Positions 14,464 to 20,496 of a DNA stretch of 64,000 bases are shown piece by piece. The position numbers and the translations under genes are program-made. A model generated the notes under the pieces. The model did no database searches and was not told the origin of the DNA. It saw only the letters and a program-made list of their open reading frames with translations. Origin of the DNA: Legionellales bacterium (lineage in GTDB: Bacteria > Pseudomonadota > Gammaproteobacteria > UBA1113); contig PAMH01000034.1 in NCBI GenBank assembly GCA_002707205.1, forward strand, positions 47,337 through 111,336, in the 5' to 3' direction. Position 1 is the first letter of the stretch; each line of letters opens with the position of its first letter.

Positions 14464-14568
14464 AATGGATATATTTTAAAAATTTGTCCTAGATTACCGT
14501 AAATAATCGGCATGGTCGAGTGATAAATAAACAAAAAGGCACAAAGATTACACAAAAATTGCAAAAAA

Positions 14569-14584
14569 ATGACATTTTTGTCAT
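14569..14584. promoter_or_regulatory. 16-bp palindrome ATGACATTTTTGTCAT immediately upstream of a sigma70-like promoter (TTGCAA-18-TACAAT) for the first MOMP gene
   Basis: Perfect inverted repeat ATGACA-N4-TGTCAT. A near-identical site lies upstream of the fifth MOMP gene (19335..19350). Confidence 0.4.
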
Positions 14585-14756
14585 TTTGCACTTGCAAAAA
14601 CTTGAAATATGTAACTACAATACTAATCTATCTTTAAATAATATTTATATTATTTGGTAGGCATTTAACAATGCGTTAAATGTTTCGGAAGGTAATTCTC
14701 TGCGGACTCATGGTGAGTCCAATGTTGTACAACAAATTTTAGAGGAAATTGCAGCG

Positions 14757-15782
14757 ATGACTAAACGAATAACTTTAGCCTTAGCTATGATTGGTCTTTC
14801 AGCTTCTGCTTTTGCAGGTGCTCCAGGTAACCAAGTAGCAATGCCAACTGGCGTTAATTTAATTGCGCCTGATAGCGTTGGTGTATGGAGTTTCGGAATT
14901 GAAGCTTTATATGCTAAACCATCAAATAATCAGTTTCAGTATGGTCAATTAGTAACTGACCCAACTTCTGATTTTCCAAGTGTTAAAAACAAGTCAGTCA
15001 GTAGCGACCATGATTGGGGCGGTACAGTTGATATGACTTATATGTTCCCAGGAAGCAGCCGTGATGTAAAGTTATCTTACTCACACATTGATTTTAACAA
15101 TAGTAGTAATACCGTTGTTGGTGCTAACCAATTATTTGCATTACCTATCGGTGATTTAGATGATTTAGCAGGTGCAGGTGACACTGCTAAAGGTTCGCAA
15201 GATACTGATGTAGATGCGGTTGATTTAGTATTTGGTCAATGGATTCGTATTGGTCAGCGTGTAGACTTACACCCATTTGGCGGTTTACGTTATGCAGCGA
15301 TTGATACTGATGACAAAGGTACTTATACTGATATCAGCAATACTGCTGCAAATAACTTCCAAACTGCTCAATTCAAGAGCGATTTTGACGGTATTGGTCC
15401 ACGTGCTGGTGTAGATACAGCTGTACACTTAGGTTACGGTTTCTCTATCGTTGGTACAATGGCTGGATCTTTATTGATCGGTAGTACTGATAGCAAGTAC
15501 ACAACTTATAATCCTAACCTTACAACTGCATCAACTAATGTTTATAAGAGCGGTAGTTCAACAACAATCGTTCCTGAGTTAGATGCACGTATTGGCGTAG
15601 ATTATATGTATGCTTTCACGCCTGAAACTTCTATGAATGTTCAGTTGGGCTGGCAAGTTGTTAACTACTTTGATGTAACTAATACTGATGCAGTTGATAT
15701 CGCTGTTCCTAACACAGTAAATAACTCTGAAGACTTCGGTTACCAAGGTCCTTACTTAAGATTGCAAGTTAATCTTGCTTAA
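14757..15782 (+). CDS. Legionella-type major outer membrane protein (MOMP/OmpS family) paralog 1
   Basis: Signal peptide ending FAGAPGN; conserved blocks PTGVNLIAPDS, WGG, DLHPFGGLRYA, GIGPRAG, VPELDARIG, GPYLRLQVNLA shared by all five tandem copies. Confidence 0.85.
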   Translation: MTKRITLALAMIGLSASAFAGAPGNQVAMPTGVNLIAPDSVGVWSFGIEALYAKPSNNQFQYGQLVTDPTSDFPSVKNKSVSSDHDWGGTVDMTYMFPGSSRDVKLSYSHIDFNNSSNTVVGANQLFALPIGDLDDLAGAGDTAKGSQDTDVDAVDLVFGQWIRIGQRVDLHPFGGLRYAAIDTDDKGTYTDISNTAANNFQTAQFKSDFDGIGPRAGVDTAVHLGYGFSIVGTMAGSLLIGSTDSKYTTYNPNLTTASTNVYKSGSSTTIVPELDARIGVDYMYAFTPETSMNVQLGWQVVNYFDVTNTDAVDIAVPNTVNNSEDFGYQGPYLRLQVNLA

Positions 15783-15817
15783 TTAAGTTTTACCTACAAG
15801 GTAGTTAAGTTTATAAA

Positions 15818-15847
15818 CCGAGTATTGGTTTCAATACTCGGTTTTTT
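15818..15847 (+). terminator. Rho-independent terminator after MOMP paralog 1
   Basis: Stem CCGAGTATTG / CAATACTCGG with a 4-nt loop, followed by TTTTTT. Confidence 0.65.
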
Positions 15848-15923
15848 CGTTTTTAGGACGTTGTTTATATGCTTAAGAACTGGTAGGATAAATCATCGGA
15901 CTTTTTTAAATAAGGATATATTC

Positions 15924-18241: not shown

Positions 18242-19255
18242 ATGTATAAAAAAATTTCCTTAGCACTCAGTTTATTAACATTGTCTAGTCAAATTTTTGC
18301 AGGCCAGGTGGGTGATACAGTCATTGCACCAACGGGCGTTAATTTAATAGCACCAGATAGTCAAGGCGTATGGTCATTGGGTTTAGAACTCCTTTCAATG
18401 ACGCCTAATAATGTAAACTTTCAATATGCAACAGTAAGTAATAGTTCCATACCAACAGGAACAACACAAAACAAGTCCGTTGATGGTTCGCATAGCCTTG
18501 GTGGTACAATTGATCTTAGTTATGTCTTTCCGGGAAATGGACGAGACATACAAATTGCCTACACGCGTCTACATCTAACCGATAATGACAATGCAGTTTC
18601 AACTGCTGGCACAAGCAATACGTTAAATATTCCTTTTAGTAACTTAACCGTTTACGATAATGCTTCTGGTAGTGTTGATCAGGATTTAGATGCATTTGAT
18701 TTGCTATTTGGGCAGTGGATTCGTATTGGTTCACGTGTAGACTTACATCCATTTGCAGGCTTGCGTTATGCGCGAATTAAGCTTGATGATAAGGCAAATT
18801 ATACAGACAATTCTAACAATGCAAATTACAGTACAGGTAAAATTAAATCTGACTTTAGTGGGCTTGGTCCTCGTGCTGGCATGGATGTGGCTGTACACCT
18901 GACTTCTGGCATTTCATTTATCGGTACGGCAGGTGCCTCTATTTTAATTGGTAATTTGGATAGTAAAATAACGGGCAGTAATTATCTGAATGCACAATAT
19001 ATAGATGGTTATCAATATAAAAATAGTAATTCAACGCAAACTGTGCCAGAGTTAGATGCACGTTTAGGTGTTAACTATACTTATCGCTTTAATCCTGGTA
19101 CAGCACTTGGTTTGGAATTTGGCTATCAAGCGGTTACTTATTTTGATGTAATGGATACCGATTATATTGATACTTTGGCAGTAAACACCATCAATAATTC
19201 ACAGAATTTTGGTTATTATGGTCCATATTTTAGATTACAATTCTCGGTTGTTTAG
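18242..19255 (+). CDS. MOMP family paralog 4
   Basis: Same conserved blocks; GGA RBS 36 nt after paralog 3, so probably co-transcribed with it. Confidence 0.85.
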   Translation: MYKKISLALSLLTLSSQIFAGQVGDTVIAPTGVNLIAPDSQGVWSLGLELLSMTPNNVNFQYATVSNSSIPTGTTQNKSVDGSHSLGGTIDLSYVFPGNGRDIQIAYTRLHLTDNDNAVSTAGTSNTLNIPFSNLTVYDNASGSVDQDLDAFDLLFGQWIRIGSRVDLHPFAGLRYARIKLDDKANYTDNSNNANYSTGKIKSDFSGLGPRAGMDVAVHLTSGISFIGTAGASILIGNLDSKITGSNYLNAQYIDGYQYKNSNSTQTVPELDARLGVNYTYRFNPGTALGLEFGYQAVTYFDVMDTDYIDTLAVNTINNSQNFGYYGPYFRLQFSVV

Positions 19256-19334
19256 GCTAAAAGGTGATATACAAGCAGAGTTTTGTTTGTTAAATAAACA
19301 AAGTTGCTTTGAATGTAAACAGATTTTAAAAAAA

Positions 19335-19350
19335 ATGACAAATTTGTCAT
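19335..19350. promoter_or_regulatory. 16-bp palindrome ATGACAAATTTGTCAT upstream of a TTGTAA-18-TATAAT promoter for MOMP paralog 5
   Basis: Same ATGACA-N4-TGTCAT architecture and same position relative to the -35 box as the site at 14569..14584. Confidence 0.4.
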
Positions 19351-19428
19351 AAAAATATTGTAAATTTAGATTAACAGTGTCTATAATGACTCTGTAACGT
19401 TTTTTTAATTAAAAAAGGAAGGCAAATC

Positions 19429-20445
19429 ATGGTAAAAAAAATTGCTTTTGCATTAGCAGCAATTGGAATTAGCAGCGCAGCTTTTGCAGGACATCCTGGT
19501 GATGCGGTTGTAGCACCTACAGGTGTTAACTTAATCGCTCCAGATAGCGTTGGCGTTTGGACAGTTGGATTAGAGGCTTTATACATGGAGCCAACTAATG
19601 CTGATTTTCAGTATGCGCAAGTTGATGATAACTCTACACCAACGAATACGTTCAAAAATAAATCAACTAATCCATCTCATGATTGGGGCGGTACAATTGA
19701 CGTTGATTACTTATTCCCAGGTAATAGCCGTGACGTGAAATTATCTTATACGCATTTGCATATGGATAATAACGATGGTAGCGTTTCAACAGTTGGTACA
19801 ACTAACTCTTTAAGCGAACCTTTTGGTATTGCTCCAGTTAACTTTGACGGTGCTAAAGGTAGTTCTGATAACGATTTAGATGCTGTTGATTTAGTATTCG
19901 GTCAATGGATTCGTATCGGTGAGCGTGTAGATCTTCACCCATTTGGTGGTTTACGTTATGCTAGCATCGACATGAATGATAAAGGTAAATACACTGATAG
20001 CACTGATCTTGCAAACTATGGTGTTGGTAAAGTTAAATCTGACTTTAGTGGTATTGGTCCACGTGCGGGTCTTGATGCAACTGTACACGTAGGTTCTGGC
20101 GTATCTTTTGTTGGTACAGTAGGCGCGTCTTTATTAGTTGGTGACCTTGATAGCAAGTTCTCTGGCACTGAATATGTAGCTGGTGTAGCTGATAATGGTT
20201 TCAATGCTAAAAATAGCGAAGATACACACGTTGTTCCTGAGTTAGATGCTCGTTTAGGTGTTAACTACACTTATAACTTTGATCCAGCAACTGCATTAGG
20301 TGTTGAGTTAGGTTATCAAGCAGTTAACTACTTCGATGTAGCTGATAAAGATATTATTGATGCAGGATTTCCAAATACTGTAAATAACTCTGAAGACTTC
20401 GGTTATCATGGTCCTTACTTAAGAGTTCAAGTATCTATGGCTTAA
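19429..20445 (+). CDS. MOMP family paralog 5
   Basis: MVKKIAFALAAIGISSAAFAGHPGD...GPYLRVQVSMA; AAGGAAGG RBS. Confidence 0.85.
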   Translation: MVKKIAFALAAIGISSAAFAGHPGDAVVAPTGVNLIAPDSVGVWTVGLEALYMEPTNADFQYAQVDDNSTPTNTFKNKSTNPSHDWGGTIDVDYLFPGNSRDVKLSYTHLHMDNNDGSVSTVGTTNSLSEPFGIAPVNFDGAKGSSDNDLDAVDLVFGQWIRIGERVDLHPFGGLRYASIDMNDKGKYTDSTDLANYGVGKVKSDFSGIGPRAGLDATVHVGSGVSFVGTVGASLLVGDLDSKFSGTEYVAGVADNGFNAKNSEDTHVVPELDARLGVNYTYNFDPATALGVELGYQAVNYFDVADKDIIDAGFPNTVNNSEDFGYHGPYLRVQVSMA

Positions 20446-20470
20446 TTTTAAGTACATATTTATTTGTGAA

Positions 20471-20496
20471 AAAGCCGAGCGTAGCTCGGCTTTTTT
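20471..20496 (+). terminator. Rho-independent terminator after the MOMP array
   Basis: AAAGCCGAGC-GTA-GCTCGGCTTTTTT. Confidence 0.75.

Follow-up and report, generated by a model that had tools for sequence, protein, structure and literature searches.

The 64-kb window examined here, which is the whole stretch of DNA analysed (contig PAMH01000034.1 of a Legionellales bacterium), carries in the 6033 bp from 14464 to 20496 an array of five genes, g1 to g5, which encode proteins of the Legionella major outer membrane protein (MOMP) family, Pfam PF05150 (Legionella_OMP). We consider it likely that this is a chromosomal, miaA-linked array of five ancient duplicates, transcribed as four units, in which g1 and g5 are co-regulated and g3 is probably defective, and which has been shaped by birth-and-death evolution. 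The account is built on the family and fold of the proteins, the gene order, the conserved cis-elements, a stop codon in g3 and a lack of variation in the population.

The five open reading frames (ORFs) are consecutive and lie on the forward strand at 14757-20445, bounded by miaA (13522-14463, reverse strand), which is transcribed divergently from the array, and by a membrane-protein gene (20836-21939, reverse strand). The product of the latter, directly 3' of the array, has 367 aa and no Pfam match, and resembles a multi-pass membrane protein. The genes of the array are as follows.

14757-15782, forward strand: g1, MOMP paralog, 341 aa (PF05150 E 2e-60)
15924-16970, forward strand: g2, MOMP paralog, 348 aa (PF05150 E 2.6e-47)
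17222-18205, forward strand: g3, MOMP paralog with a premature TAA, 327 aa (PF05150 E 5.5e-62)
18242-19255, forward strand: g4, MOMP paralog, 337 aa (PF05150 E 5.4e-54)
19429-20445, forward strand: g5, MOMP paralog, 338 aa (PF05150 E 7.9e-58)

The mechanically called ORF of g2 starts at a TTG at 15825, within the g1 terminator; the start was taken instead as the ATG at 15924, which gives a homologous N-terminus (MKRITLAL...), has a Shine-Dalgarno (SD) sequence, AAGGA, and is the same as in public gene calls. The gaps before the five genes measure 293, 141, 251, 36 and 173 nt in order, and the three long ones (293, 251 and 173 nt) have a GC content of 0.26-0.31 compared with 0.37-0.43 within the genes. 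Even g4, 36 nt 3' of g3, has an SD sequence of its own. An earlier reading made from the letters of this DNA (the sequence-only reading) had described five tandem same-strand genes at these coordinates, with long AT-rich gaps before genes 1, 3 and 5, terminator hairpins after genes 1 and 5, and Legionella-type MOMP products sharing conserved blocks but diverged in their loops; the tandem layout and the gaps are as it described them, and the remaining points also stand, as set out below.

The Legionella_OMP hidden Markov model, whose failure to match that reading had named as one result that would overturn it, matches all five proteins at full length (profile positions 2-3 to 276-280 of 281), with E-values from 2.6e-47 to 5.5e-62 and scores of 161.6-209.7 bits against a gathering cut-off of 25.4 bits; g3 is the top Pfam scorer among the five. 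No NCBIfam model assigned g1-g5 to a family; the one match, for g3, was to BamG and below threshold. Pairwise identity between the paralogs is 41-61% for protein and 52-65% for DNA. When a profile of 74 family members was searched against solved structures a single one was found, 9NH1 ("Major outer membrane protein", E 9e-35), and g5 alone also matched the 9NH1 sequence in the PDB (E 8.6e-17). An AlphaFold2 model of g5, built on the family alignment, shows ten long strands (mean predicted local distance difference test score, pLDDT, 88.4; predicted template-modelling score, pTM, 0.81), and with this model Foldseek placed the 9NH1 chains first (E 1e-17, TM score 0.77-0.81 normalised to the target), followed by the other 10-stranded barrels Pla, OmpT and OpcA. 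The fold was modelled for g5 only, and the model, together with the alignment of g1-g4 with g5, places all five proteins among the 10-stranded beta-barrels of the Legionella MOMP family.

On the surface of Legionella the dominant proteins are those of the MOMP family, which mediate attachment to the host cell, and the L. pneumophila MOMP has porin activity. In the structure 9NH1, modelled as Lpg2961, porin I of the L. pneumophila Dot/Icm machine is an in situ trimer of 10-stranded barrels reaching approximately 25 A past the membrane, and MOMP has been seen as ordered arrays around this secretion machine (PMC12501162). Porin activity and trimer formation of g1-g5 can thus be inferred by analogy as predictions: the array proteins would be exported by the Sec pathway and, like Lpg2961, would form trimeric porins with long hairpins standing approximately 25 A above the membrane. 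Signal peptides were recognised by inspection in all five, with K/R close to the N-terminus, then a hydrophobic core, and cleavage at residue 19-20 (AFA|G, VLA|G, LYA|G, IFA|G and AFA|G for g1 to g5 in order).

Divergence between the paralogs is concentrated in the parts of the hairpins distal to the membrane. The g5 model served as reference, the membrane zone being taken as the ten residues beside each periplasmic turn and both termini being assumed, as is usual, to lie in the periplasm. Mean pairwise identity of the five paralogs was 0.54 in the membrane zone and turns compared with 0.41 in the distal hairpins (p = 0.0013), and for the 74 family members 0.56 compared with 0.31 (p = 3e-15), in agreement with the conserved blocks and diverged loops proposed earlier. 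The least conserved blocks are g5 residues ~108-143 and 244-267, then 57-84 and 186-200; nearly all insertions and deletions fall within the distal hairpin parts, among them an insertion of 11 residues that g2 has in its second distal loop. The variable distal hairpins are presumably surface-exposed, and with the barrel core kept and the hairpins differing a cell could display, or pick between, pores with different surfaces.

The comparison of copy number across relatives which the sequence-only reading had called for was carried out on related genome and metagenome contigs (numbered with the prefix L), with orthogroups taken from a neighbour-joining tree and best-match tables. At the miaA-linked locus there are four copies in L019 and L022, five in the window, six in L021 and L145, at least four in L144 and at least three in L146; elsewhere, tandem copies number three in three Legionella species and one to three in other metagenome-assembled genomes (MAGs). 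The pcnB-folK-MFS-(miaA)-array neighbourhood (MFS, major facilitator superfamily) is syntenic in more distant metagenome relatives. In a scan of a genome collection no relative exceeded 49% identity, and the nearest of the named genomes were MAGs of uncultured Legionellales and Gammaproteobacteria, which supports the Legionellales-like affiliation proposed from the letters. As a separate observation, L022 has between its MFS gene and miaA a gene for an 867-aa protein (3704-6307, forward strand) with a faint match to eukaryotic-type protein kinases, which is absent from the window.

The copies keep their places between species. Orthologs of g1 are always first (L019, L021, L022, L144 and L145, 66-74% identity), those of g5 (69-83%) last or next to last, and those of g2 (L019, L021 and L145, 52-63%) and g3 (39-71%) in between; g4 has an ortholog, of 72% identity, only in the closest relative, L146, and L021 and L145 have a triplet expansion of their own. 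Orthologs from different species are closer to each other than are the paralogs within this genome, and the longest exact tract shared by any two of the five paralogs is 26 nt. The pattern points to an old birth-and-death divergence of duplicates and not to cassette recombination or phase variation.

The evidence for co-regulation comes from the regions upstream of g1 and g5, which are listed here with the other predicted signals of the array.

14569-14584, strand unassigned: candidate g1 operator, 16-bp palindrome ATGACATTTTTGTCAT, 7 nt 5' of the -35 element
14592-14621, forward strand: predicted g1 promoter, sigma-70-like (TTGCAA, 18 nt, TACAAT), from a consensus scan and conservation
14628-14756, forward strand: predicted g1 5' leader of ~130 nt, counted from the inferred transcription start site, with a hairpin GGACTCA...TGAGTCC and the SD sequence AGAGGAA
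14724-14733: perfect 10-nt palindrome GTTGTACAAC in the g1 leader, just 5' of the SD sequence, conserved in four species
15815-15854, forward strand: predicted intrinsic g1 terminator, 13-bp stem (hairpin 15815-15844) and T-run, dG -18.3, z -5.2
16994-17027, forward strand: hairpin 3' of g2 with no U-tract, dG -16.7, z -2.7, termination activity uncertain
19335-19350, strand unassigned: candidate g5 operator, 16-bp palindrome ATGACAAATTTGTCAT, 7 nt 5' of the -35 element
19358-19387, forward strand: predicted g5 promoter, sigma-70-like (TTGTAA, 18 nt, TATAAT), from a consensus scan and conservation
20474-20496, forward strand: predicted g5 terminator, GCCGAGC-GTA-GCTCGGC followed by T6 (hairpin 20474-20490), dG -22, z -5.6

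Both palindromes have the form ATGACA-N4-TGTCAT and are centred at approximately -51.5 of the predicted start. The core TGACA-N4-TGTCA (or TGAC-N6-GTCA) has only two sites in the window, both in MOMP promoters, where mononucleotide shuffles gave a mean of 0.67 such sites per window, and a scan of the window found the palindrome before none of g2, g3 and g4. Related loci, 93 kb in all, contain nine copies of the core, and eight of these sites lie either 92-99 nt 5' of g5-type genes or 183-184 nt 5' of g1-type genes. It precedes the g5 orthologs of L019, L020, L021, L143, L144 and L145, and with one mismatch that of L022, at 92-99 nt, whilst at the g1 orthologs of L019 and L021 it is found with one mismatch at 183-184 nt. 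The spacer varies freely (TTTT, AATT, AAAT, GAAA, ATTT) and in L019 and L021 the arms carry substitutions that do not compensate each other, features which a binding site for a protein fits better than an RNA hairpin. A role as terminator hairpin was considered and rejected, as the stem comprises 6 bp, two of them G-C, no convergent gene lies upstream of g1 to be terminated, and the changes in the arms are not compensatory. A known operator was sought by comparison with the sites of Fur, Zur, CRP, FNR, LexA, OmpR, CpxR, PmrA and LetA, none of which was a convincing match. The pattern TGACA-N4-TGTCAT-N7-TTGNAA, searched for across metagenomes, was found in at least 120 unrelated stretches (e.g., from the human gut), none of those listed with a PF05150 gene, and so says nothing of a regulon. 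A search of Legionella and more distant MAG loci gave no match to the palindrome, and the element therefore appears to be confined to the close clade.

The same palindrome at the same distance from the -35 element of g1 and g5 argues for a shared regulator. The sequence-only reading had spoken of independently regulated promoters; separate promoters are predicted, and those of g1 and g5 are conserved, but the palindrome that these two genes share speaks against their independence, and they are probably co-regulated through this candidate operator. One dimeric DNA-binding protein would control the two together, and g2 and g3-g4, which have no such site, would be less strongly expressed, or would need other conditions for expression.

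Codon usage gives some indication of which copies dominate. The effective number of codons (ENC) is 35.9 for g5, the lowest of the 44 ORFs in the window, 39.2 for g1, 40.6 for g3, 44.0 for g2 and 44.3 for g4, the last two standing at the level of the window median (~44). Low ENC, higher conservation, near-consensus promoters and strong terminators together suggest that g1 and g5 are probably the abundant porins of the array, and that g5 is probably the major one.

The third copy, in contrast with all others, lacks a complete C-terminal strand. The consensus GPYLRLQLxxA/V is complete in g1, g2, g4 and g5, whereas g3 ends ...GPYIRA at a premature TAA (18203-18205), after which the frame continues as L-N-I-V-TAA at 18206-18220; read through, the end would be PYIRA*LNIV*, and the orthologs end RAQLNIV (L019) and RAQLDIV (L146). 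Thirty-two of 33 array proteins have the full strand, g3 being the sole exception, and its stop is present in all six assemblies retrieved. A single change, most simply from CAA to TAA, accounts for it, and since the ORF is otherwise intact this nonsense event is recent. The stop removes the last five residues, which in the model of g5 make up approximately half of membrane-spanning strand 10. Outer-membrane proteins, as substrates of the barrel-assembly machinery (BAM), normally need the C-terminal strand motif for assembly. As the residues lost belong to the part that this machinery recognises, g3 is probably either defective or being lost.

These results lead us to a further proposal, which we hold tentatively and rate at a little short of an even chance: that the palindrome is the operator of an undescribed regulator of both major porins in an uncultured, marine, Legionellales-like clade, and that the middle copies escape its control. 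If this is true the array would have two tiers of porins, a core pair under common control and a set of evolvable accessory copies, and the freshly truncated g3 would represent turnover of the accessory tier in progress.

There is also an unlikely reading in which the array is simply decaying, only g1 and g5 being functional and g2, g3 and g4 being redundant copies under relaxed selection that are becoming pseudogenes. It would explain why the premature stop in g3 cuts the end of the C-terminal strand, why g3 and g2 have the fastest-diverging orthologs (39-56% and 52-63% compared with 66-74% for g1 and g5), why codon bias in g2 and g4 does not rise above the window background, and why gains and losses of copies between species sit in the middle of the array. 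However, g2 and g4 are intact and full-length, have signal peptides, SD sequences and all of the residues invariant in the family, and match Pfam at E 1e-47 and 1e-54; orthologs of g2, g3 and g4 are kept in several species; and g3 itself, its one stop aside, is free of frameshifts and scores highest of the five against Pfam.

The division of the array into the units g1, g2, g3 with g4, and g5 is a plausible and, we think, the best reading of its transcription signals, in which the units of g1 and g5 are well supported by prediction and conservation and the boundaries of g2 and g3-g4 are weaker. As predicted, g1 would be transcribed alone, with a conserved promoter, a leader of ~130 nt and a strong terminator; g2 would also be transcribed alone; g3 and g4, with a gap of only 36 nt between them, are probably co-transcribed; and g5 would be transcribed alone from a conserved near-consensus promoter to a strong terminator. 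Comparison of four species shows TTGCAA and the 18-nt spacing of the g1 promoter to be invariant, with TACAAT, TAAAAT or TAGAAT as the -10 element. Upstream of g5, seven relatives have TTGTAA or TTGTTA at -35, an invariant TATAAT at -10 and the SD sequence GGAAGG at fixed spacing. The hairpins after genes 1 and 5, which the sequence-only reading had taken for terminators, are supported as such by folding (z -5.2 and z -5.6), and terminators follow the g1 orthologs and the last gene in all loci examined: a GC-rich hairpin and T-run after the g1 orthologs of L019, L021, L022 and L144, and an equivalent of the last-gene terminator in L019, L021 and L022. The hairpin after g4 is weak and A+T-rich, and folding of the 36-nt gap between g3 and g4 gave no significant hairpin.

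The leader of g1 may be a site of post-transcriptional control. It folds more stably than shuffled sequences (minimum free energy -36 kcal/mol, z -3.7) and its 3' part is conserved in four species; a consensus structure from the four sequences contained only an invariant stem of six pairs, with no covariation. Scans of the whole window against Rfam at gathering thresholds and for tRNA genes gave no matches.

A number of points weigh against the account of four units with a co-regulated pair, and it should be read with these in mind. The promoters, terminators and operator are predictions. The generic promoter scan was not enriched, with 26 matches against 27.7 expected from shuffled sequence, so the argument for promoters rests on conservation, and by eye the promoter before g2 looks weak. 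Neither the hairpin after g2 nor that after g4 has a U-tract, so transcription may read through from g2 into g3-g4 and from g4 into g5. The g1 ortholog of L022 does not have the palindrome, nor do the Legionella loci examined and more distant MAGs, and activators do not classically bind at a site centred on -51.5. ENC is a rough proxy for expression, and the loop zones rest on the assumed orientation and on DSSP strand ends, not on the coordinates of the model.

Two of these points, the unenriched scan and the hairpins after g2 and g4 without a U-tract, would equally suit a single operon transcribed mainly from the g1 promoter, in which the internal hairpins are attenuators or mRNA-stabilising 3' ends that set stoichiometry, and the close spacing of five genes on one strand, with only 36 nt between g3 and g4, lends itself to the same idea. 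We regard it as improbable, given the strong g1 terminator (13-bp stem and T-run, z -5.2), which recurs in four other species, the near-consensus g5 promoter with its perfect TATAAT, conserved in seven relatives, and the 251- and 173-nt gaps, which are AT-rich like promoter regions. Separate units thus remain our preferred description of the array.

A protein identical to g5 is encoded on 21 metagenome contigs; those with a name come mostly from Tara Oceans assemblies. In six contigs retrieved from different samples the array is 100% identical in nucleotide sequence over 6033 bp, and identity over 21 kb is 99.99% (L001 and L002 show 1-2 nt differences from window positions 9429-30445); since it was an identical g5 protein that led to these six, the sample is biased towards one strain. 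The organism resembles a marine population that is close to clonal and has a wide distribution. Codon choice raised the question of gene conversion between g1 and g5, as this pair has identical codons at 66% of conserved residues (~50% in other pairs); the idea was rejected, there being no tract above 26 nt, and a codon bias common to both genes explains the figure more simply. Among the five paralogs and these six assemblies with their bias towards one strain there was no sign of gene conversion, cassette exchange or within-population variation. The earlier suggestion of antigenically variable porins is therefore not upheld, the six assemblies being identical, the shared tracts short and the orthologs positional across species. 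Antigenic or phase variation to evade a host or predator, by swapping of loops through gene conversion or by on/off switching through repeat length, is known in other intracellular bacteria from Anaplasma msp2 and Neisseria opa and would suit tandem surface-protein paralogs with variable distal loops and the A7-A8 runs upstream of g1 and g5, but it is very unlikely indeed here, where the A-runs too are identical in the six assemblies (with the bias just given), a longest exact match of 26 nt at 52-65% nucleotide identity is too little for homologous exchange, and orthologs are closer than paralogs and keep their positions.

Tandem momp paralogs are already known in Legionella, and in this respect the array is ordinary for the MOMP family and nothing categorically new; what is new here, the conserved candidate operator and the recent truncation of g3, are modest details. 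In L. pneumophila two mompS copies of ~99% identity stand beside lpg2960 (~50% identity), with lpg1974 elsewhere (PMC5042515). The array shares with the Legionella momp cluster the PF05150 family, the 10-stranded barrel and the tandem same-strand arrangement of paralogs, of which L. resiliens, L. anisa and L. santicrucis also have three tandem copies. However, its proteins are only ~25-30% identical to those of Legionella, and are ~40-50 residues longer when mature, the extra length being in the distal hairpins; its five copies are old (41-61% identity) with no near-identical recent duplicate; and none of the Legionella loci examined has the TGAC-N6-GTCA promoter palindrome. The MOMP of L. pneumophila forms a disulfide-linked 28/31-kDa complex. 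The aligned N-terminus of 9NH1, PVCTPGNVTVPCE, contains two cysteines whilst g1-g5 have a cysteine count of zero, so cross-linking of the L. pneumophila type would be impossible here. The window proteins are thus best placed within the MOMP family and outside the subtype of the genus Legionella.

Outside the Gammaproteobacteria, some Chlamydiae have massive PF05150 expansions, of 36 copies in Simkania negevensis (PMC7145651). These are similar in being host-associated with multi-copy PF05150, and one chlamydial MAG (L018) appeared in the genome scan, but they belong to another phylum, their expansions are far larger and dispersed, and identity is ~25%. The porins OmpF and OmpC of E. coli have separate promoters with an OmpR site just 5' of the -35 element, where OmpR binds direct repeats. 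The array is alike in having several porins, separate promoters and a candidate regulator site just 5' of -35, and its long structured 5' leader recalls that of ompA; however, ompF and ompC are unlinked genes for unrelated 16-stranded barrels with direct repeats in place of the 6-4-6 palindrome of the array, and a site common to two copies suggests that these are regulated together, not reciprocally. The p28/omp-1 locus of Ehrlichia and the msp2 locus of Anaplasma are tandem loci of intracellular bacteria, some of them differentially expressed between hosts, and msp2 uses gene conversion into an expression site. They too have tandem surface beta-barrel paralogs with a conserved framework and variable exposed regions, but are of another family, and the array shows no sign of msp2-like gene conversion. 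What the locus does add is a view of MOMP-family expansion and turnover outside the cultured genera, with four to six old, positionally conserved copies, and a short cis-element that could be used for finding a porin regulator in this clade; knowledge of the MOMP family itself is unchanged by it.

A second PF05150 array of three shorter, more divergent genes on the forward strand (59200-60204, 60182-61132 and 61108-62010; Pfam E-values 1e-31, 3.5e-29 and 7e-21) brings the number of members in the window to eight. Its frames overlap by ~23 nt, which suggests one operon, and it is followed by a convergent GDSL-lipase gene (61998-62876, reverse strand).

Amongst the other genes of the window, one at 36017-37315 (forward strand, 432 aa), which overlaps the end of polA (33334-36030), matches the full profile of PF08014 (MATCAP, E 1.7e-123), the microtubule-associated tyrosine carboxypeptidase, and is a bacterial homolog of an enzyme that modifies tubulin in eukaryotes; the source bacterium is probably host-associated. 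Four ORFs have no Pfam match (8036-9571, reverse strand, 511 aa; 28913-31081, reverse strand, 722 aa; 40476-42557, forward strand, 693 aa; and 58261-59019, forward strand, 252 aa), and it is speculation that they encode lineage-specific proteins such as secreted effectors. A putative conjugative relaxase/helicase (22403-23749, reverse strand, 448 aa), with TraI_2 (E 2.6e-10) and TraI_2_C (E 3.9e-5) matches, lies among housekeeping genes (CMD-family, HemN-like and UbiC) with no other transfer genes nearby, and its position is conserved in metagenome contigs. The Kdo hydroxylase KdoO is encoded at 54079-54990 (reverse strand; PF11004, E 5e-111). This enzyme modifies the inner core of lipopolysaccharide and is known from Legionella, Coxiella, Burkholderia and Yersinia; its presence fits the proposed Legionellales-like affiliation.

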